Shown: positions 51,814 through 64,000, numbered from the stretch's first letter. The stretch: DNA of 64,000 bases from Patescibacteria group bacterium (GCA_018817715.1 JAHITT010000004.1:19751-83750); one strand, 5' to 3'. The notes: generated by a model not told the origin, from the sequence alone. Made by a program: numbers and translations.

Positions 51814-51888
51814 TCCGGGGTAGCTCAGTGGTAGAGCAGTTGGCTGTTAACCAATTGGTCGTGGGTTCGAGTCCCACCCCCGGAGCCA
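51814..51888 (+). tRNA. tRNA-Asn (anticodon GTT), CCA encoded; likely integration site
   Basis: TCCGGGGTAGCTCAGTGGTAGAGC...CTGTTAA...GGGTTCGAGTCCCACCCCCGGAGCCA. Confidence 0.85.
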
Positions 51889-53490
51889 GATAGGATTAAC
51901 ATCAGCGAAAGCTGGTGTTTTTCCTTTATTGACGGGCTCTTTTGGCGGTTCGAAAGTCTTTTTTTCGTCTATTTTTTCTCCCAACATCTCGATTACTCGG
52001 TTAGAGATGATTTTGAAGGCTTTCTGGTATGAAATCTCGATTTTCTTGCCATTTATGGTCGGGTTCGAAAATAAAAGGGACAATAATACTTTTTTGTCGT
52101 CGACCATGTCGAAGGTGCTTCGGTTTATGTAAATCTTTCTTGCATCCTTGGCCATTTGGAGAAATGTCGATCCCATATCGTAATACTTAAGGTTGGCATT
52201 TTTATGCTTGTTGAGGCTGTCCATCACTTCCTCCTGCTCAATCTTGTATTGCTGGTACTTTTTCTGATAGAAGTCCTCGCTGATTTTGCCGTCGATCTTG
52301 TCGTCATATATTTTATCTAGTCTCTGCGTGGCTACCTGGTAGCGTCGCTCGAGTTCGCCGGTAGCCTTTTCCCTGAATTCTATCTCCTCACCGTGGCTTT
52401 CCTTGAGAGCCTCTTGGACCCAAGTGAGCATATTCTCTATGGCTTCATCGTGATTAGAGCTCAAGAGCTCGATATTCTCCGTTACTTGTATATCGATATT
52501 TTCTTGCTTCACCCATTCTCTTTGTTTGCAATTTTTGTAATGGTTGCAGTGACCGTACCAATGACCTTTCTGTATCTCCCAAGTTATCCGACCCTTGCAT
52601 TCGTCACAGTGGAAGATGTTTTTGAACAGTGGGTTGTGCTTGTTATATTTTGGCGTCCCGTTGCTATGCATGATATCTTGGCACCGCATGAATAATTCTT
52701 TGGTGATCAGTGGCTCGTGTTCACCTTTGCCAACTTTGCCGTTCCAACGATTCATTCCGTAATAGAATGGATCACCGAGAAGCTGGTGGACTCGCGAGTG
52801 ACTCACTTTGTTGCCTCCTCGAGATCGCATACCGAGCCTGTACATTTCATCGGCAAGTTTCTTGGTCGAGCTTACGTTGGTGGCATAGAGGTCAAACATT
52901 TTCTTAACCATCGGTGCTTTGTCCTCATCTATCACATGGATTTTATGTCCTTTCTCACCAATCGTTTTATATCCGAGTGGTGGTTTGCTCGGCAACCATC
53001 CTTGAGCGAGTTTTTCTTTCTGGCCTTTCTTTACGTTTTCGGACAAAAGGCGGATGTAATATTCGGCCGTGGCCACTTTCACTCGCCACATAAACCATTC
53101 ATGCGACTTGGAGTCTTTGTGAAGCGTACATCCTTCTTTGACCAAGTGGATCGTATGCTTTTCGTCCGCTAGTATCCATTCGTCAATTACCGGCACATCG
53201 GCAAAATTACGGGTCAGGCGATCGGTTGTCTCCACGAAGACTGTATTGATCTTGGACTTGGTCACGTATTCCAACATTTCGTGAAATATTTTGCGCTGGA
53301 TTTTTCCAGCGGCCGACTCCTGAATGGCAAAAACCTTTACGAGCTCGTAGCCGTTGCGGTCGGCGTAGTCTCGCAAAAGTTTCTCTTGAGCCGGAAGCGA
53401 ATAGCCGGTGTCCTCCTGATCTTTGGAAGACACCCGGGCGTAGCCTACGGCTTGCATCGATTGATTTTCTTGATTCATTGTCATAATCAT
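51847..53490 (-). CDS. Large serine recombinase (resolvase-type catalytic domain, recombinase domain, zinc ribbon)
   Basis: AVGYARVSSKDQ catalytic Ser motif. The C-terminal 14 codons are read through the tRNA-Asn 3' half (…GWDSNPRPIG). Confidence 0.85.
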   Translation of the reverse strand: MIMTMNQENQSMQAVGYARVSSKDQEDTGYSLPAQEKLLRDYADRNGYELVKVFAIQESAAGKIQRKIFHEMLEYVTKSKINTVFVETTDRLTRNFADVPVIDEWILADEKHTIHLVKEGCTLHKDSKSHEWFMWRVKVATAEYYIRLLSENVKKGQKEKLAQGWLPSKPPLGYKTIGEKGHKIHVIDEDKAPMVKKMFDLYATNVSSTKKLADEMYRLGMRSRGGNKVSHSRVHQLLGDPFYYGMNRWNGKVGKGEHEPLITKELFMRCQDIMHSNGTPKYNKHNPLFKNIFHCDECKGRITWEIQKGHWYGHCNHYKNCKQREWVKQENIDIQVTENIELLSSNHDEAIENMLTWVQEALKESHGEEIEFREKATGELERRYQVATQRLDKIYDDKIDGKISEDFYQKKYQQYKIEQEEVMDSLNKHKNANLKYYDMGSTFLQMAKDARKIYINRSTFDMVDDKKVLLSLLFSNPTINGKKIEISYQKAFKIISNRVIEMLGEKIDEKKTFEPPKEPVNKGKTPAFADVNPIWLRGWDSNPRPIG

Positions 53491-55527: not shown

Positions 55528-56208
55528 TCACCGCAGGAAAATTCTATATTCCGGATTGATCCGGTAGCCGTCGGTGCGACGACCCTCAATCAGTTTGCCG
55601 ATTTTCAAATCATTTTTAGCTTTGGCGTTTATTTTCATAATTGCCGAGCGTACCGAATAATCGCTTCCGGCTTCAGTAGCCATGCGGATATCTGGCGTGG
55701 TCTGGTAGGTTTTGCCGATCAGGTATTTCAGTATCCGATACCGGAGCAACTCTTTACCCATGTGGTAGCAGTATTTGCTTTTCGGATCACGGTACAGGTC
55801 GGCATCGGCCGACAAGTGGAGAATGGTCTGTTTAAGATCAGGTTTTGCTTTTCCTTGCGCAAAGTATTCGGCAAAAGAGATAGCCGCTTCACGTGCGAAT
55901 GTTTTTATAAAATGCTGATCATACTCGGTCAGTCCCTCAAACTTGCTCGTCCGGTGTTCCAAGAGGGACCGGATACTTTTGACCTCGAGCTTTGTTTCGA
56001 TTATTTCTCTGGTTAGATCACCGACGGCTGATTTGTTGTTCTGGATGATCTTATCCCCATCGGCTATACCAGCCGTTTTCATCGACGATCGGAGTATTTT
56101 CTCGGTGGTAACGATTGAGAGACGATAGGTTTGCGCCATCGTCACCGGTTTTCTGATATTGAATTTGTGCCTAGTGGCCAAAGAGGCCTTTTTCATTTTC
56201 ATACTCAT
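55528..56208 (-). CDS. Hypothetical DNA-binding protein (C-terminal winged-helix-like)
   Basis: 226 aa. Divergent from the 56395 gene across a 186-bp intergenic region. Confidence 0.35.
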   Translation of the reverse strand: MSMKMKKASLATRHKFNIRKPVTMAQTYRLSIVTTEKILRSSMKTAGIADGDKIIQNNKSAVGDLTREIIETKLEVKSIRSLLEHRTSKFEGLTEYDQHFIKTFAREAAISFAEYFAQGKAKPDLKQTILHLSADADLYRDPKSKYCYHMGKELLRYRILKYLIGKTYQTTPDIRMATEAGSDYSVRSAIMKINAKAKNDLKIGKLIEGRRTDGYRINPEYRIFLR

Positions 56209-56394
56209 TTTTGTACTGGAACGTAGCTTTAGCGTAACTTCCAGTTAAAGTTTAGTGAATAGAACCCGTTTTCTACTCTTCATTCACTACTAAGCAATTT
56301 TGCTTATTTGCCCATACCCATTGCTTTAATCCTAAGTATAGCATATAATGTAATCCATAAGTAACATTTTGCGTAACCTTTTAGATTATAACCT

Positions 56395-56991
56395 ATGACC
56401 CAGCGAATAGACATCATGAATACACTCCTCCGATCCAAGCAGTCAGTATTTACGTTCAAGGAAGTAAACTTGCTTGCTGGAGGTGAAATCAGCCCAGCTC
56501 TATTGCGACGCCGGGTGAGCTATTACATTCAAAAAGATCAACTGCATCCGCTTCGACGCGGCATTTATGCCAAAGATAAAAAATATGACAAATTCGAATT
56601 GGCAAATCGAATTTATACCCCCTCGTATATAAGCTTTGAGACTGTTCTCAGTCGAGCAGGTGTTATTTTTCAATCATACGGGCAAATATTTATTGCATCT
56701 TATCTTACACGCGAACTGAAAATTGATGACCAGATATATTCTTACAGAAAAATTAAGGACGACATCCTAATGAGAACTCAACTGCCTATAGGCATCGAAC
56801 ATAAAGGCACTTATTCCATTGCTACTCCTGAACGGGCATTTTTAGACGTGGTTTATCTTTCCAAAGATTATCACTTCGACAATTTGTCCGCTTTAAACTG
56901 GGAGAAGGTATTTGAGATTCTCCCAATTTTTGAAAATGTCGAGATGGAAAAACGGGTCAAGGCATATTACGAGCTGTTCAAGCATAGTTAA
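56395..56991 (+). CDS. AbiEi-like antitoxin/regulator N-terminal wHTH domain protein
   Basis: LHPLRRGIYAKD and TPSYISFETVLSRAGVI resemble the AbiEi family (L.RGvY ... PSYvSlesAL). Confidence 0.5.
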   Translation: MTQRIDIMNTLLRSKQSVFTFKEVNLLAGGEISPALLRRRVSYYIQKDQLHPLRRGIYAKDKKYDKFELANRIYTPSYISFETVLSRAGVIFQSYGQIFIASYLTRELKIDDQIYSYRKIKDDILMRTQLPIGIEHKGTYSIATPERAFLDVVYLSKDYHFDNLSALNWEKVFEILPIFENVEMEKRVKAYYELFKHS

Positions 56992-57022
56992 GCCTGAATC
57001 ATGAGTATGAAAATGAAAATGT

Positions 57023-59971
57023 ATGAAAATCACTGACCATCACGCAAAATACTTTGCCTACGAACTCACCAAGCGATGTCCATCGGACAGCTTGGAGAAA
57101 TTGTCGTCTACGCTTTCCAACGCACAAGTTGATCTTAATCCTCATCAGATAGAGGCGGCGCTGTTTGCATTTCGATCGCCACTCTCTAAAGGAGCTATCC
57201 TTGCTGATGAGGTTGGTCTTGGAAAAACAATTGAGGCAGGACTCGTGCTCTCGCAAAAATGGGCTGAAAGAAAACGAAAGATACTGCTTATCTTGCCCTC
57301 GAGTTTACGTAAGCAATGGAACGCTGAATTGCAAGAGAAATTCTTTTTGCCATCGATTATTTTAGAAGCAAAATCATTTAATCAGTATATTAACGGCGGT
57401 AACCTCAATCCATTCGAGCAGGAAGATGTGATCGTTATTTGCTCGTATCACTTCGCTCGATCAAAGGCGGCCTATATTAAAAAAATTAAATGGGACCTGG
57501 CAGTTATTGATGAAGCACACCGACTTCGTAATGTGTATAAAACCAACAATAAAATCGCTCGGGAAATTAAGAATGCACTCTCCGAAGTTCCGAAAATTCT
57601 TCTTACAGCAACACCACTTCAAAATTCACTGCTTGAGCTCTACGGATTAGTGAGCATCATTGATGATCATGTGTTCGGAGACCTTACGAGTTTTAAAGTG
57701 AACTATGCCCGTCTTTCACGTGAGCAGGACGTGTATGACGGCGAAGCTGGATTTGTTGAACCACGACAGGAGATGTTCATGGATTTACGCAACCGGCTCA
57801 AGCAGGTATGTACCCGAACACTTCGTAGGCAGGTTTTGGAGTATATAAAATATACCAAGCGTATCCCACTCACTCAGGACTATATTCCGACCGAAGATGA
57901 GATCCGGCTTTATGATGGCATGTCCGAATATCTGCAAAGACCCAAGCTTTTCGCATTGCCTTCCAGTCAACGACAGCTGATCACGCTTATCCTACGTAAG
58001 CTTCTCGCCTCATCGTCCTTTGCTATTGCCAGCACTCTCAACAGTTTGGTATTTAAACTTTCTGCGCTGATTGAGGAGGCCGAGAAAGCAAAAACAGTTA
58101 AGGAAACCGGTATCGCCGGACTCGAAGACAACTTTGAGAACCTTGAGGAAATATCGGACGAGTGGGTTGACGATGAAGAGAGTGATGAGGAGTCCGAAAA
58201 AGATGCGCCGAAAATAAAATACACCGACGAGGATATCGCGCTGATGAGGACGGAAAAAGCTGATCTGGAAAAATTCCGAGATATGGCCAAGAAGATTCTC
58301 AAGAACTCTAAAGGAGAGGCTTTACTTATTGCCCTCGAAAAAGGTTTTGAGATGACAAATAAGTTGGGAGCAAAAAAGAAAGCTATCATATTTACCGAGT
58401 CGACCATTACTCAGAATTACTTGTATTCCGATCTCCTTTCAAAGGGTGGGTATGACGGCAAAATAGTTCTCTTTAACGGATCGAACAACGACGATAAATC
58501 AAAGCAGATTTATGCCGACTGGATCAGGGTTAATAAAGACACGGATAAAATAACCGGCTCAAAAACCTCGGACATGCGCGCCGCGCTCGTTGACTACTTC
58601 CGTGATGAGGCGGAAATAATGATTGCGACCGAAGCGGCGGCCGAGGGCGTGAACCTCCAGTTCTGTTCACTGCTGATCAACTACGACCTCCCTTGGAACC
58701 CTCAGCGTATTGAACAGCGTATCGGCCGATGCCACCGTTACGGCCAGAAGCATGACGTTGTGGTTATTAACTTCGTGAACCGTAAAAATGCGGCCGATCA
58801 GCGTGTCTACGACCTGCTCGATCAGAAGTTCAGCCTGTTCAAGGGCGTATTCGGAGCAAGCGATGAAGTGCTTGGTGGCATCGAGTCCGGAGTTGATTTT
58901 GAGAAGCGTATCGCGGCCATTTATCAGTCGTGCCGAACCGAAGAAGAAATCACTGGTGCGTTTGATACCCTGCAAAAACAGATGGACGAGAGCATTCAAA
59001 ATAACCTCCGTGATACTCGTCAGAAATTGCTGGAAAACTTCGATGCGGAAGTACATGAAAAACTCAAAGTTAACCTTAAAGAAAGCAAGGCTTATCTGGA
59101 TACTTATACGAGCTGGCTTTGGGACGCCACAAAATATTATCTTGGCGATAACGCGGAGTTTGCGGAGCACGAATATTCATTCACGCTTAAAAATAATCCC
59201 TTCCCTAATGAGCAGATCGACCCGGGACCTTATAAGATTGGTAAAAATATAGACGACGCACATATTTATCGTCCTGGACATCCTCTAGCACAAAAGATTC
59301 TTGGCGAGATTAAAGCCAAGGTATTTGACGATGCTGAAATCACTTTTGACTACTCAAGCAACTCCACGATTATTTCTATTCTAGAACCTCTTGTCGGCAA
59401 GAGTGGTATTTTGAAAGTGTCCAATTATACCGTTGAGGCCTTTGAGGCCGAGGATGCGGTGGTTGTATCGGCTATTGATGAATCAGGAAATCCGGTAGAT
59501 GGAGAAATAGCTAAGAAACTTTTTTCTATCGCAGCTCAAACTGTGAAGACCGCCACACTTTCTCCGGAAGAGAAAACAAAGCTCGGCGAACTCGAAGACC
59601 AGACTGTTGGGATTGTTTCTACTCGAATTGCCGAGCGCAACAGCGAGTTTTTTGACAATGAGGTAGACAAGCTCGATAAGTGGGCGGAGGATATGAAAAA
59701 AGCTGTTGAGCTTGATCTCAAGAAGCTGGATGTTGACATTAAAATTTCCAAGACCAACGCCAAGAAAATCTTAAACCTCGATGAGAAATTGAAAGCCCAA
59801 CGAGGTATTAAGGATATGGAGAAGAAGCGCAATGAGATGCGCAAAAAGTTATATGAGGCTCAGGACGATGTGGAAGGCAGAAAAGAAAAACTTATCGGAG
59901 AAGTGGAGGCTCAATTGAAACAAAAATCAAAACTTGAGTCGCTGTTCACCATCCGGTGGAGAGTCGTTTAA
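57023..59971 (+). CDS. SNF2-family ATPase/helicase with acidic insertion and ~340-aa C-terminal coiled-coil extension
   Basis: Motif I LADEVGLGKTIEAG, motif II DEAHRLRN, motif III LLTATPLQNS, motif VI QRIGRCHRYGQ. Acidic DEWVDDEESDEESE stretch. Lys/Glu-rich heptad-like C-terminus. Confidence 0.85.
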   Translation: MKITDHHAKYFAYELTKRCPSDSLEKLSSTLSNAQVDLNPHQIEAALFAFRSPLSKGAILADEVGLGKTIEAGLVLSQKWAERKRKILLILPSSLRKQWNAELQEKFFLPSIILEAKSFNQYINGGNLNPFEQEDVIVICSYHFARSKAAYIKKIKWDLAVIDEAHRLRNVYKTNNKIAREIKNALSEVPKILLTATPLQNSLLELYGLVSIIDDHVFGDLTSFKVNYARLSREQDVYDGEAGFVEPRQEMFMDLRNRLKQVCTRTLRRQVLEYIKYTKRIPLTQDYIPTEDEIRLYDGMSEYLQRPKLFALPSSQRQLITLILRKLLASSSFAIASTLNSLVFKLSALIEEAEKAKTVKETGIAGLEDNFENLEEISDEWVDDEESDEESEKDAPKIKYTDEDIALMRTEKADLEKFRDMAKKILKNSKGEALLIALEKGFEMTNKLGAKKKAIIFTESTITQNYLYSDLLSKGGYDGKIVLFNGSNNDDKSKQIYADWIRVNKDTDKITGSKTSDMRAALVDYFRDEAEIMIATEAAAEGVNLQFCSLLINYDLPWNPQRIEQRIGRCHRYGQKHDVVVINFVNRKNAADQRVYDLLDQKFSLFKGVFGASDEVLGGIESGVDFEKRIAAIYQSCRTEEEITGAFDTLQKQMDESIQNNLRDTRQKLLENFDAEVHEKLKVNLKESKAYLDTYTSWLWDATKYYLGDNAEFAEHEYSFTLKNNPFPNEQIDPGPYKIGKNIDDAHIYRPGHPLAQKILGEIKAKVFDDAEITFDYSSNSTIISILEPLVGKSGILKVSNYTVEAFEAEDAVVVSAIDESGNPVDGEIAKKLFSIAAQTVKTATLSPEEKTKLGELEDQTVGIVSTRIAERNSEFFDNEVDKLDKWAEDMKKAVELDLKKLDVDIKISKTNAKKILNLDEKLKAQRGIKDMEKKRNEMRKKLYEAQDDVEGRKEKLIGEVEAQLKQKSKLESLFTIRWRVV

Positions 59972-59973
59972 TT

Positions 59974-60000
59974 CAGTTGTCCGGAATTTCCGGACAACTG
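59974..60000 (+). terminator. 27-nt perfect hairpin (13-bp arms) right after the SNF2 stop; terminator or operator
   Basis: cagttgtccggaa-t-ttccggacaactg followed by moderately U-rich gtagaattatt. Confidence 0.4.
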
Positions 60001-60029: not shown

Positions 60030-60869
60030 ATGACAGAAAACAACAACAAACTCATCGCAATCTTTGAAGACCAGCCAGTACGCCGCACTTGGGATGGAAA
60101 GGCGGAAAAGTGGCTTTTTAGCGTCGTGGACATAGTCGGAATCTTGAGTCAGAGTGCTGACCCAAGGAACTACTGGAAAGTGCTAAAAAACCGTTTAAAT
60201 AAGGAAGGAAGTGAAGTGGTTACAAAATGTAACCAGTTGAAAATGCTAGCCCCAGACGGCAAGATGCGCGAAACCGATGCGGCAGACGTGGAGACAATAT
60301 TCCGCCTTGTGCAATCGGTGCCCTCTCCCAAAGCGGAGCCCTTTAAGCTTTGGCTCGCAAAGGTCGGTTATGAGCGCATGCAGGAAACAGTTGACCCTGA
60401 ATTGGCGGTAAGTCGCGGACGTAAAAATTGGCAGGCGATGGGACGAAGCCAGAAATGGATTGAGCAAAGGATGTTAAGCGTAGAGACTAGAAATAAACTG
60501 ACTGATTACTGGTCGGATCATGGAATCAAAAAAGGCGAGGAGTTCGCTAAGCTGACAAATATAATCCACCAAGAATGGAGCGGTCTTTCCGTAAAAAGTC
60601 ATAAAAATCTCAAGAACTTGAAGTCGCAGAACTTACGTGACCACATGAGTGAGGCCGAGATAATTTTTACCTCATTGGCTGAACTGTCCACACGGCAGAT
60701 TTCTGAAAAAGAAAAGTCGGAGGGTTACGGACAGAACGAAGTCGTGGCGCGAAAAGGCGGACAGATTTCCGGCAATGCACGCAAAGCCCTGGAGGAACAA
60801 ACTGGCAAAAAGGTCGTGAGCTCGGAAAATTTCTTGCCGACAAAAAAAGAACCAAAGAAGCTGAAATAA
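60030..60869 (+). CDS. Bro-N domain protein, DinD-like
   Basis: IAIFEDQPVRRTWDGKAEKWLFSVVDIVGIL matches the Bro-N core. Stop TAA at 60867-60869 abuts the ATG of the methyltransferase at 60871. Confidence 0.65.
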   Translation: MTENNNKLIAIFEDQPVRRTWDGKAEKWLFSVVDIVGILSQSADPRNYWKVLKNRLNKEGSEVVTKCNQLKMLAPDGKMRETDAADVETIFRLVQSVPSPKAEPFKLWLAKVGYERMQETVDPELAVSRGRKNWQAMGRSQKWIEQRMLSVETRNKLTDYWSDHGIKKGEEFAKLTNIIHQEWSGLSVKSHKNLKNLKSQNLRDHMSEAEIIFTSLAELSTRQISEKEKSEGYGQNEVVARKGGQISGNARKALEEQTGKKVVSSENFLPTKKEPKKLK

Positions 60870-60870
60870 T

Positions 60871-62457
60871 ATGACTAATAAAAAGCAAAAACTGGAGTTA
60901 ACGTGGATCGGCAAAGACGAAGAGCTCAAGCTTGAGCCGAGGATTTTGATTGAGGACCCGGACAAGTCCTACGGCGACAAGTCGGCCGAGAATATGCTCA
61001 TCCACGGCGATAACCTCCTCGCGCTCAAAGCCCTCGAGCAGGACTTCGCCGGACGTATTAAATGCATCTATATCGATCCTCCGTATAACACAGGCAGTGC
61101 GTTTGAACATTATGACGATAATCTTGAGCACTCCACATGGCTCAGCTTAATGAGACCAAGACTAGAGATTTTAAAGAACCTTTTGCATAAAGATAAGGGT
61201 AGTATTTGGATTTCAATTGATGCAGACGAAAGTCATTATCTGAAAGTACTTTGTGATGAGATTTTTGGAAGGTCTAACTTTATAGATGAAGTTATTTGGC
61301 AACGATCATATGCACCAATAAATTTAAAGAAAACATTTTCTAGAAATCACGACGCTATTTTAGTCTATGCAAAAAACAGTTCCGGTTTTGAATTAAATAA
61401 ACTAGAAAGATCAGAAAAATTAAATGATAGTTTTACTAATCCTGATAATGATCCAAGAGGACCTTGGGCATCAGGCCCCATACAAGTTGGACCGCGTGTT
61501 GAGTCTAGGGTTTATGAGATAAAAACTACAAATGGACGAGTTATTGTGCCGCCCCCACAAGCTTGTTGGAGATTCTCTGAGGAAAAATATAAAGAAATGG
61601 TTGCGGATAATCGGATATATTTTGGACCTAACGGGGACAATGTCCCCCGTGTAAAGAGATTTTTATCCGAAGTTAAAGACGGGGTTGTACCGATGACTCT
61701 TTGGTTAAGAGATGATGTTGGAGATAACCAAGAAGCAAAAAAAGAAATCAAGAAATTATTTACCGATGATGTCTTTGATACACCAAAGCCAGAACGTCTC
61801 ATAAAACGAATTCTTGATCTTGGTTCTAATAACGGAGATTGGGTTTTAGATTCTTTCCTTGGTTCCGGTACTACTTCCGCCGTGGGGCATAAAACTGGAA
61901 GGAAGCATATCGGAATTGAATTCGGCGATCATGCCGATACACATTGCTTACCTCGATTGAAAAAGGTTGTTGATGGTACTGATGGACTTAAACTCTCCGA
62001 AGAACTTGATTGGAAAGGTGGCGGTGGATTTAAGTTTTATAATCTTGCGCCGAGCCTGCTTCGCAAGGATTCTTTCGGCAACTTCGTGATCGATGAAAAC
62101 TATAACGCTAATATGCTGGCCGCGGCCATGTGCAAACATGAGGGTTTCAAATTCTATCCGGACGAAGCTCTTTACTGGAAGCATGGCAAGTCCACCGAGA
62201 CCGACTTCATTTTCGTAACCACCGGATTCATCACTGCCGAGCAGTTAGATAAGGTAAATAGCGAAATGAAAGCTGGCGAGAGTCTGCTTATTTGTGCCAA
62301 ATCATTCGCACCCGAATGCGAAAACCGTTTTGCTAATATCACGGTCAAGAAAATTCCACAGATGATCTTGGGCAAATGCGAATTCGCCAAGGATAACTAC
62401 GACTTGAACATCATCAAAGCCACGGAAGCGCAGGCGGAAGAATCTAACGAAGCCTAA
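60871..62457 (+). CDS. mod: DNA methyltransferase, Type III Mod-like (beta-class N6A/N4C)
   Basis: ELTWIGKDE N-terminus. DPPYNTG catalytic motif early in the protein. FxGxG AdoMet motif LDSFLGSGTT late. Confidence 0.8.
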   Translation: MTNKKQKLELTWIGKDEELKLEPRILIEDPDKSYGDKSAENMLIHGDNLLALKALEQDFAGRIKCIYIDPPYNTGSAFEHYDDNLEHSTWLSLMRPRLEILKNLLHKDKGSIWISIDADESHYLKVLCDEIFGRSNFIDEVIWQRSYAPINLKKTFSRNHDAILVYAKNSSGFELNKLERSEKLNDSFTNPDNDPRGPWASGPIQVGPRVESRVYEIKTTNGRVIVPPPQACWRFSEEKYKEMVADNRIYFGPNGDNVPRVKRFLSEVKDGVVPMTLWLRDDVGDNQEAKKEIKKLFTDDVFDTPKPERLIKRILDLGSNNGDWVLDSFLGSGTTSAVGHKTGRKHIGIEFGDHADTHCLPRLKKVVDGTDGLKLSEELDWKGGGGFKFYNLAPSLLRKDSFGNFVIDENYNANMLAAAMCKHEGFKFYPDEALYWKHGKSTETDFIFVTTGFITAEQLDKVNSEMKAGESLLICAKSFAPECENRFANITVKKIPQMILGKCEFAKDNYDLNIIKATEAQAEESNEA

Positions 62458-62458
62458 T

Positions 62459-64000
62459 ATGAATACTAAAGCACAAGCAATCAAAAATAGGTTAAGCCTC
62501 CGCAAGCCACAAGCGGATAGTTTGGAAATTCTAGAAAAACTAGCGGATGTTTTGGAGTTGAAAAAGGACGCAGATGTAGTCAGCGAGCTTTCCAAAGTGC
62601 GAGCCTTGTATCCAACATGCGCTGATTTTGAACGAGACTTTCCATCAGTTTGTTTTTCTTTGGCAACAGGTGTCGGCAAGACTCGGCTTATGGGTGCATT
62701 TATTTCCTATCTCTATGCCGCCAAAGGTGTAAAGAATTATTTTGTATTGGCTCCCAACCTTACCATTTACAACAAGCTCATCGATGATCTCTCAAATCCG
62801 CGAAGCCCTAAGTATGTTTTTCGTGGCATAAGTGATTTTGCCATAACAGCACCACGAATCATTACCGGTGATAACTATGCCGAAGCTCGCCAAAGCACTT
62901 TGTTTAAGGAGTCAGTAAAGATAAACATTTTCAATATCTCGAAGATCAATTCTGAAGTCCGTGGAGGCAAGGAGCCGAGGATCAAACGTCTTTCGGAATA
63001 CCTTGGCGAGTCATATTTCAATTATCTTTCCGAATTGCCAGACCTCGTACTTTTGATGGACGAGTCGCACCACTATCGAGCTGATTCTGGACTCCGAGCA
63101 ATCAATGAGCTCAAGCCAATTTTGGGTCTTGAACTCACCGCAACGCCAATCGATACTAAGGGCGTTAAATTTAAGAATGTTGTTTTTGATTATCCGCTTG
63201 CTCGAGCACTACAAGACGGTTTCGTAAAAGAACCGGCAGTCGCTACACGCCGCGATTTCAACCCTGACCAGTATCGCAACGATCCGAAAGAACTTGATCT
63301 TATAAAGCTTGAGGACGGAGTGCGTATTCACGAAGACACCAAGGTGGCTTTGGATATTTACGCTCGAGATAGCGGTAATCGTTTGGTTAGGCCGTTCGTG
63401 TTAGTTGTCGCTCGAGATACCGATCACGCCAAAGAGATTCGTGGCTTGATTGAGTCGGACCGGTTCTTTGAAGGCCGGTATACCGGCAAGGTGATGGAGA
63501 TTCATTCAAACCAGCGCGGTGAAGAAAAAGAGGAAAATGTACAGAGGCTCATTGATCTGGAAAAGCCGGAAAACCCGATTGAGATTGTTGTACATGTAAA
63601 TATGCTCAAAGAGGGTTGGGACGTTACTAATCTCTACACCATTATTCCTTTGCGTGCGGCCAACTCCCAGATTCTTACCGAGCAGACCATCGGCCGTGGT
63701 TTGCGATTGCCTTATGGCGCACGGACCGGCGTTGAAAAGGTAGACAAGCTCACCATCATCGCTCACGATCGTTTTCAGTCCATCGTGGATGCGGCCAATG
63801 ATCCAAACTCTATAATCCGACAGGAGAATATCATCGAGATTGATCCGGATGCGTTGCCGGAGGCGCAGGAGGTTATTACTGCTTCCTCGGTAATGGAAGA
63901 GGCACTAGCTCTCAAACGCACGGAGATTGCGACTATTGTAAATGAGGCGGATCGCCAAAAAGCGGGCTTGGTTTTAGAGGCCGAACAACTGATCACTGAA
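62459..64000 (+). CDS. res: DEAH-box helicase, Type III Res-like (or DISARM DrmA-like), truncated by window end
   Basis: ATG at 62459, 2 nt after the mod stop. Motif I LATGVGKTRL, motif II LLMDESHHY. The frame stays open to the end of the window. Confidence 0.7.
   Translation, partial: MNTKAQAIKNRLSLRKPQADSLEILEKLADVLELKKDADVVSELSKVRALYPTCADFERDFPSVCFSLATGVGKTRLMGAFISYLYAAKGVKNYFVLAPNLTIYNKLIDDLSNPRSPKYVFRGISDFAITAPRIITGDNYAEARQSTLFKESVKINIFNISKINSEVRGGKEPRIKRLSEYLGESYFNYLSELPDLVLLMDESHHYRADSGLRAINELKPILGLELTATPIDTKGVKFKNVVFDYPLARALQDGFVKEPAVATRRDFNPDQYRNDPKELDLIKLEDGVRIHEDTKVALDIYARDSGNRLVRPFVLVVARDTDHAKEIRGLIESDRFFEGRYTGKVMEIHSNQRGEEKEENVQRLIDLEKPENPIEIVVHVNMLKEGWDVTNLYTIIPLRAANSQILTEQTIGRGLRLPYGARTGVEKVDKLTIIAHDRFQSIVDAANDPNSIIRQENIIEIDPDALPEAQEVITASSVMEEALALKRTEIATIVNEADRQKAGLVLEAEQLITE

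Follow-up and report, generated by a model that had tools for sequence, protein, structure and literature searches.

A SNF2-family ATPase gene in a probable Type III restriction-modification cassette on a Patescibacteria genomic island

Results

A SNF2 gene linked to Type III mod and res genes

In this study we analysed a stretch of 64,000 nucleotides (nt) from a Patescibacteria group bacterium (GCA_018817715.1, JAHITT010000004.1:19751-83750), hereafter called the window, in which a gene for a SNF2-family ATPase follows a gene for an AbiEi-like winged-helix protein. We conclude that the SNF2 gene is probably an accessory gene of a Type III restriction-modification (R-M) cassette, carried on a serine-recombinase island at a tRNA-Asn gene. 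On the plus strand the co-directional genes run in the order AbiEi-like, SNF2, Bro-N, Type III Mod and Type III Res (positions are counted from the first nucleotide of the window):

56395..56991, plus strand, AbiEi-like winged-helix protein, 198 amino acids (PADLOC PDLC02255, E 7e-61, residues 5-190)
57023..59971, plus strand, SNF2-family ATPase, 982 amino acids, nuclease-free (Pfam SNF2-rel_dom, 9.7e-33; Helicase_C, 5e-19)
60030-60869, plus strand, Bro-N domain protein, 279 amino acids (Pfam Bro-N, 6e-8; PADLOC PDC-S13, 2e-122)
60871-62457, plus strand, Type III Mod, 528 amino acids (Pfam N6_N4_Mtase, 9e-44; PADLOC MTase_III, 1e-188)
62459..64000, plus strand, Type III Res, N-terminal helicase part (PADLOC REase_III, 2.4e-136; Pfam ResIII, 5e-21)

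The original prediction had singled out the first two of these genes as a candidate undescribed defence component. The two open reading frames (ORFs) of 198 and 982 residues, the gap of 31 base pairs (bp) between them and the complete set of SNF2 motifs were confirmed by our ORF and Pfam reading. Overall, the observation was confirmed and the interpretation was supported in part.

The genome sample comprised 32 loci fetched via SNF2, to which four loci with annotation from E. coli and Salmonella were added. Of these, 26 have at least 2.5 kilobases (kb) of sequence after SNF2. In 25 of the 26, SNF2 is followed by a co-directional Mod homologue and then usually by Res; the sole exception has a disrupted SNF2. 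The reverse sample consisted of 80 metagenome loci that were picked solely by a Res relative (52-98% identity). Where at least 7 kb upstream of Res was present, Mod was found in all 34 loci and SNF2 in 32 of them. Furthermore, on viral and proviral contigs of IMG/VR, Mod lies downstream in 35 of the 39 loci with a full-length SNF2. The functional unit consists of SNF2, a variable slot, a Type III Mod and a Type III Res, and this order is conserved across phyla. AbiEi, on the other hand, is located upstream of SNF2 in only 17 of 123 loci. Since Mod and Res follow SNF2 almost always, AbiEi and SNF2 do not form the functional unit, and the methyltransferase/helicase operon that had been regarded as a neighbour is the rest of the same cassette.

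The translation of the window mod gene contains the readable motifs IDPPYNTG (DPPY) and FLGSGTT. The res gene leaves the window at residue 513. A Res relative (locus L013) is 99% identical over those 513 residues; it is 883 amino acids long and has a terminal PD...ExK nuclease motif.

The SNF2 ATPase belongs to the family of the extra ATPase of Eco86II

In the SNF2 protein we could read the motifs GLGKT (residues 65-69), DEAH (163-166), TATP (195-198) and QRIGRCHRYGQ (565-575) directly, and all seven helicase motifs are present. No nuclease family or fold was found in the protein by Pfam, NCBIfam, PADLOC and fold searches. The NCBI database already holds an identical protein, annotated as 'DEAD/DEAH box helicase [Patescibacteria group bacterium]', and a database search returned more than 8000 homologues of the family. 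The best 120 matches show 75-87% identity at 100% coverage and come from Patescibacteria, Omnitrophota, Deltaproteobacteria and Elusimicrobia.

The acidic insertion named in the original prediction was found at residues ~363-400, where it is predicted to be disordered:

58109..58222, plus strand, acidic disordered loop in the SNF2 helical insertion, residues 363-400 (predicted local distance difference test score, pLDDT, 30-44)

The loop carries the motif DEW.DDEE, and E372, E380 and W381 vary little or not at all among 135 homologues. The conserved tryptophan within an otherwise variable acidic stretch suggests that the loop is a docking or autoinhibitory element. A 15-residue insertion, DVYDGEAGFVEPRQE (residues 236-250; 57728-57772), is shared by the window protein and L009 and was not seen in the 11 more distant homologues that were aligned.

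A gene of this class has been reported before. Murray et al. 2021 (PMC8259958) described an extra helicase-like ATPase of unexplained function in 'group 3' Type III R-M systems of more than 500 genomes, with Eco86II (E. coli NCTC86) and BspHIV (Acinetobacter sp. H) as examples. The extra ATPase of Eco86II has superfamily 2 (SF2) helicase motifs and no nuclease motif; methylation proceeds without it, and it was missing from the active enzyme after partial purification (PMC8259958). Group 3 systems are marked by one-strand methylation at an asymmetric recognition sequence, with N4-methylcytosine (m4C) as the product in the two characterised members, and by cleavage that requires ATP (PMC8259958). 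In the NCTC86 locus (L043), the gene for a SNF2-related protein is followed after 20 bp by genes for a 1040-residue methyltransferase and a 1126-residue helicase-family protein. The window SNF2 and the NCTC86 SNF2 are 45% identical (E = 0) from residue 4 to the last residue. On this full-length homology the window SNF2 is of the same protein family as the extra ATPase of Eco86II, and the component is not an undescribed one. A literature search for functional studies of Type III-associated SNF2 proteins gave nothing beyond PMC8259958.

The two systems also share the place of SNF2 5' of mod, the absence of a nuclease motif and an equally tight association with Mod and Res. In contrast to Eco86II, the window carries a Bro-N gene between SNF2 and mod and an AbiEi-like gene before SNF2, and its Mod (528 versus 1040 residues) and Res come from another Type III lineage. 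Within the catalytic core the Mod proteins are 27% identical; the Res pair is alike in the helicase motifs only. From these comparisons, one SNF2 family serves at least two Type III lineages, which argues for a shuffling of modules around a constant SNF2.

Of 5426 complete E. coli genomes, 258 (4.8%) contain a DNA-level SNF2 homologue, which always bears the annotation 'SNF2-related protein'. In the three E. coli loci and the one Salmonella locus that were inspected, SNF2 adjoins Mod and Res in an island or on a plasmid. SNF2 is an accessory gene and not a core gene.

The C-terminal module is conserved throughout the SNF2 family

The part of the protein that follows the ATPase core had been described as a novel, coiled-coil extension without a recognisable nuclease or reader domain. 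It corresponds to the following feature:

59153..59968, plus strand, C-terminal module of SNF2 (structure model)

In the model, an alpha/beta domain (residues 711-843) comes first, two antiparallel helices then form a coiled-coil hairpin (848-965), and a beta hairpin (968-981) closes the module. A nuclease or reader fold was indeed not recognisable; the coiled coil, however, is accompanied by the alpha/beta domain. Residues ~750-982 had no matches in Pfam, NCBIfam, PADLOC or PDB sequences. When the C-terminal fragment was compared to Pfam, NCBIfam and PADLOC, the match was limited to the first ~130 residues (DrmD_b), and a PDB sequence search with the last 362 residues returned a chance match alone (E 0.58). 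A fold search with the module gave no fold match and no match to RapA.

The extension is, however, not novel. Thirteen homologues with 45-75% identity align without a break through the final LFTIRW motif, and the last 293 residues alone retrieve 1714 representative clusters (50% identity), in which the match always sits at the C terminus of the protein. Judged by these alignments, the module is conserved throughout the SNF2 family and is not peculiar to the window protein.

Comparison with RapA, DISARM and Zorya

RapA (HepA) is a bacterial Swi2/Snf2 ATPase that recycles RNA polymerase. The best fold match of the full-length SNF2 model is RapA (6bog, E 5e-25), and both proteins have the build of a nuclease-free bacterial SNF2 ATPase that is expected to remodel protein-DNA complexes. 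In contrast to RapA, the window SNF2 has an unrelated C-terminal module and is accessory and mobile. Its score against the NCBIfam RapA model is 172 bits, with a cutoff of 576. The alignments begin at about RapA residue 136; the N-terminal domains of RapA are missing from the window protein.

Among named defence proteins, the nearest relatives are the DrmD ATPases of DISARM. The original prediction had noted this likeness, together with one to ZorD, and found that the domain composition fits neither. The match to the PADLOC DrmD model PDLC02619 has an E value of 7.6e-210. The NCBIfam model DISARM_DrmD_b (NF038318) gave 698 bits with a cutoff of 950, in an alignment of residues 29-701 only, and NF038317 gave 256 bits with a cutoff of 610. 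As in class 1 DISARM, a SNF2 gene with a DrmD-like ATPase core precedes a DNA methyltransferase gene in a methylation-based defence locus. The locus itself is unlike DISARM. DrmA, DrmB and DrmC are absent, and SNF2 is followed by Bro-N, Mod and Res instead. The window Mod belongs to PF01555, its best PADLOC models are all MTase_III and not DrmMI (pfam13659), and the effector is Res. No DUF1998 (DrmB) or PLD (DrmC) domains were found by Pfam past Res in the two relatives that were checked. In class 1 DISARM, deletion of drmD and drmMI nearly abolishes the protection against phage Nami (bioRxiv 10.1101/2021.12.28.474362).

The second suggested likeness, to ZorD of Zorya, was rejected. ZorD is a SNF2 ATPase fused to a Mrr-like nuclease and encoded beside zorABC, whereas the window SNF2 has no nuclease domain and scores 76 bits against NF041790 (cutoff 1500).

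The AbiEi-like protein is most likely a recruited regulator

The winged-helix protein had been assigned to AbiEi, and the PADLOC match over its full length supports this relationship. It stays below the cutoffs of Pfam AbiEi_4 (17.7 bits versus 25) and NCBIfam (25 bits versus 150). Homologues with 62-65% identity (P0238, P0306) have an AbiEii (PF08843) toxin gene within a few bases downstream, while those with at least 70% identity (P0231) have SNF2, RhuM and Mod next. The homologues keep both domains, the N-terminal winged helix and the C-terminal domain, at a coverage of 94-99%. A tblastn search with two AbiEii queries found no AbiEii, neither in the window nor in the SNF2 loci. This distribution among relatives indicates that AbiEi/AbiEii toxin-antitoxin pairs gave rise to the AbiEi-like gene, whose clade then lost the toxin.

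In other clades the same upstream position is occupied by HTH_17 proteins (14 loci), Cro/C1 or XRE proteins (~11 loci) or a WYL protein. The last of these, on an IMG/VR contig (L185, 7074-7964), lies directly upstream of SNF2. WYL proteins of such type regulate BREX and CBASS. The toxin-less AbiEi was most likely recruited in its bacterial lineage as an interchangeable regulator of the cassette.

Compared with the AbiE type IV toxin-antitoxin systems, the window protein has full-length AbiEi homology and conserved inverted repeats at its promoter, as in autoregulated AbiE operons; unlike these systems, the window has no AbiEii, and SNF2 is the downstream gene. With the C-proteins and the WYL regulators BrxR and CapW it shares that a small DNA-binding protein is encoded immediately before a defence cassette and in the same direction. 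Its AbiEi-like fold and its origin, as a putative domesticated antitoxin, are different. A literature search for functional studies of orphan AbiEi regulators likewise gave nothing beyond PMC8259958.

Upstream of the AbiEi-like gene the following elements were identified:

56253..56289, no strand assigned, operator-like inverted repeat TAGTGAAT-N21-ATTCACTA, upstream of the AbiEi promoter (pattern search)
56321..56349, plus strand, predicted sigma-70-like promoter of the AbiEi-SNF2 unit (alignment of 10 upstream regions)
56361..56377, plus strand, direct repeat GTAAC-N7-GTAAC, past the -10 element and before the start codon (conserved in the upstream alignment)

The inverted repeat occurs once in the window and in none of 100 shuffles. 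It is present in exact form in 10 AbiEi-SNF2 loci, which are all those with alignable upstream sequence except L007, where a variant is found. It was not found in three canonical AbiEi/AbiEii loci (L036, L037, L041), nor in SNF2 loci without AbiEi. The predicted promoter consists of a -35 element TTGCTT (56321-56326), a 17-nt spacer and a -10 element TATAAT (56344-56349); TTG, TATAAT and their flanks are invariant or nearly so in the 10 aligned regions. A consensus promoter scan returned fewer sites than in shuffles and missed this conserved promoter, since its -35 element fits the consensus at three of six positions only. From its conservation we infer that GTAAC-N7-GTAAC is a second candidate site for regulator binding. 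Palindromes of the form GT(T/G)AC-AAAAT-GT(A/C)AC are located just past the SNF2 stop codon in L003, L004, L005 and L013. Their resemblance to the GTAAC element hints that the regulator may also bind ahead of the slot gene.

A variable slot between SNF2 and mod

The interval between SNF2 and mod ranges from 6-29 bp between the stop and start codons, when the slot is empty, to ~5 kb (L001-L035, L044-L185). In the window the slot holds the Bro-N/PDC-S13 gene, which shows weak similarity to E. coli DinD (pairwise E 0.005 over 62 residues). In other loci we found RhuM/PDC-S05, an Old nuclease with DUF2130, a GmrSD-like DUF262/DUF1524 protein, an Abi protein, an AAA ATPase with an S8 peptidase, Schlafen-AlbA_2, PDDEXK_3, HEC-01A/B and a PD-Lambda-2_B-like protein. 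No published description of the SNF2-mod slot was found in the literature.

Directly after SNF2 lies a palindrome:

59974..60000, no strand assigned, perfect palindrome, arms of 13 nt around a 1-nt centre (59974-59986 pairs with 59988-60000, 100% complementary)

The hairpin that had been noted here is thus perfect in its 13-bp arms, although it does not directly precede the methyltransferase gene, as the Bro-N gene comes first. As RNA it has a folding energy of -21.6 kcal/mol (z = -4.6 versus shuffles). A role as an intrinsic terminator was rejected, as it is followed by no U tract on either strand. Palindromes of differing sequence were seen at this place in L002, L003, L004, L005, L006 and L013, and none is present in loci where mod directly follows SNF2. 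A 21-nt near-copy of the window palindrome (59977-59997), TTRTCCGGAAATTCCGGAATA, is found in the interval from SNF2 to Bro-N of L002 (12985) and again inside the RhuM coding sequence of L014 (4126), L038 (8777), L039 (7193) and L040 (4213). By a rough calculation, such near-copies are unlikely to arise by chance.

The cassette is located on a putative integrative element

The left part of the island contains the following features:

51814..51888, plus strand, tRNA-Asn (GTT), left edge of the system-bearing island (ARAGORN)
51847-53490, minus strand, serine recombinase with Resolvase and Recombinase domains (Pfam)
55528-56208, minus strand, protein of 226 amino acids, divergent from the AbiEi-like gene

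In the composition profile of the window, the G+C content rises from ~0.34 to ~0.45 at the tRNA-Asn gene, and at this jump the large serine recombinase gene overlaps the tRNA gene with its 3' end. The arrangement is consistent with an integrative element that regenerates the end of the tRNA. Recombinases with 23-87% identity are located upstream of SNF2 in several further loci. The 226-residue protein had no matches in Pfam, NCBIfam or PADLOC; homologues with 28-79% identity occupy the same place in L002-L005 and L013, and not in L014 or L038.

On the other side of the cassette, the regions after Res in L001 (16470-20157) and L002 (18167-22045) encode a reverse transcriptase (RVT_1) and a Cas4-like PD-(D/E)xK nuclease, and the L002 region also a TIR-domain protein. 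TspO is also among the ORFs past Res in these two relatives. The RVT_1, Cas4-like and TIR genes indicate that the cassette sits within a larger defence island, which may extend past the end of the window.

Discussion

In the scheme established for Type III enzymes, methylation by Mod is confined to one strand of the asymmetric site, and cleavage follows when Res-Mod complexes on two unmodified sites in head-to-head orientation have communicated along the DNA (reviewed in PMC3874151). In the mechanism that we propose, Mod would mark the host DNA and Res-Mod would cut unmarked DNA. By binding to two elements near its own promoter, the inverted repeat and the GTAAC repeats, AbiEi would control how the operon is expressed, in the manner of C-proteins and BrxR-type regulators in other systems. 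SNF2 would be a double-strand DNA translocase that acts on DNA-bound proteins, with the C-terminal alpha/beta domain and the coiled-coil arm as a docking or dimerisation element. The intact ATPase, the nuclease-free and RapA-like build, the unrelated Res partners and the absence of co-purification with Eco86II all point to a translocase on a generic substrate rather than to a fixed subunit. In the version that we tentatively favour, SNF2 might clear roadblocks such as RNA polymerase, phage DNA-binding proteins or anti-restriction proteins, so that sliding Res-Mod complexes can meet in vivo. A fuller version, in which SNF2 with its tail is a mechanistically new in-vivo cofactor of Type III restriction that takes protein obstacles or anti-restriction factors off target DNA, or the enzyme off host DNA, the gap before mod is a dedicated exchange slot for accessory defence genes and a domesticated AbiEi has come to control the unit in Patescibacteria, is doubtful as a whole.

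Several points weigh against this model. The clearing of roadblocks is suggested by analogy with RapA and with remodellers generally. The Eco86II ATPase is dispensable for methylation and for cleavage in vitro and does not co-purify with the enzyme, which makes a stable complex of Res, Mod and SNF2 unlikely. The pairing of SNF2 with barely related Mod and Res lineages disfavours specific contacts with Res. About two thirds of the loci have no recognisable regulator directly upstream of SNF2, and regulation from this position is therefore not essential. In addition, the completeness of the Res of the window is inferred from its relatives, as the window stops inside res.

SNF2 could instead protect the host by stripping Res-Mod or stalled complexes from chromosomal DNA that replication or repair has left transiently unmethylated, resulting in restriction alleviation and not in enhancement. 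One-strand methylation means that replication makes unmodified sites (PMC3874151), and the Eco86II SNF2 is not needed for cleavage in vitro (PMC8259958). Furthermore, the linkage of SNF2 to Res in 32 of 34 loci fits an antidote-like dependency, and the RapA protein that SNF2 resembles frees a motor protein from DNA. However, the Eco86II mod could be cloned without the ATPase, and in DISARM the loss of drmD and drmMI lowered defence while toxicity was not reported. We consider host protection, the main alternative, unlikely. Far less probable is a self-contained defence or toxin-antitoxin-like system of AbiEi and SNF2, in which SNF2 replaces AbiEii. The two genes are tightly spaced, with 31 bp in the window and 5-8 bp in L007, L014 and L038, and the AbiEi clade derives from true AbiEi/AbiEii pairs and has kept both domains. 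Yet AbiEi precedes SNF2 in the 17 of 123 loci mentioned above and is elsewhere replaced by unrelated helix-turn-helix regulators or by none, SNF2 almost never occurs without Mod and Res, and every AbiEi-SNF2 locus runs on into Mod and Res where the contig permits.

An identification of SNF2 as the DrmD of class 1 DISARM would account for the strong PDLC02619 match, the 698 bits of DrmD_b and the methyltransferase gene downstream. We regard it as highly improbable: the DrmD_b score is under the cutoff, the last ~230 residues are unmatched by either DrmD model, and the methyltransferase is a PF01555 Type III Mod, with next to it a Type III Res whose relative in L013 ends in a PD-ExK motif; past Res, Pfam found neither DUF1998 nor PLD in the two relatives that were checked. 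The chance that SNF2 is a housekeeping RapA/HepA orthologue which happens to lie beside an R-M system is next to negligible. RapA is the best match both by PDB sequence and by fold, but the equivalog score is far below the cutoff (172 versus 576 bits), the N-terminal domains of RapA are missing and the C-terminal fragment is unmatched. Moreover, only 4.8% of E. coli genomes carry the gene, and its locations are islands, plasmids and proviral contigs. Score and distribution agree with the original prediction that SNF2 is island-borne and defence-associated and not a housekeeping RapA.

These results remove the false lead of AbiEi and SNF2 as a new two-gene system. What they add is modest, namely an antitoxin relative as the likely regulator and a slot within the cassette that gathers further defence genes. 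In textbooks, Type III enzymes have two subunits, yet a large and very widespread branch of them always carries a third gene, for a highly conserved SNF2 ATPase. The question of its role is real but not new, and it is better addressed in E. coli, where a homologue in ~5% of the complete genomes makes the role of SNF2 testable in a tractable host. As the order of SNF2 before a methyltransferase recurs in DISARM, the answer might explain a shared step in methylation-based immunity.

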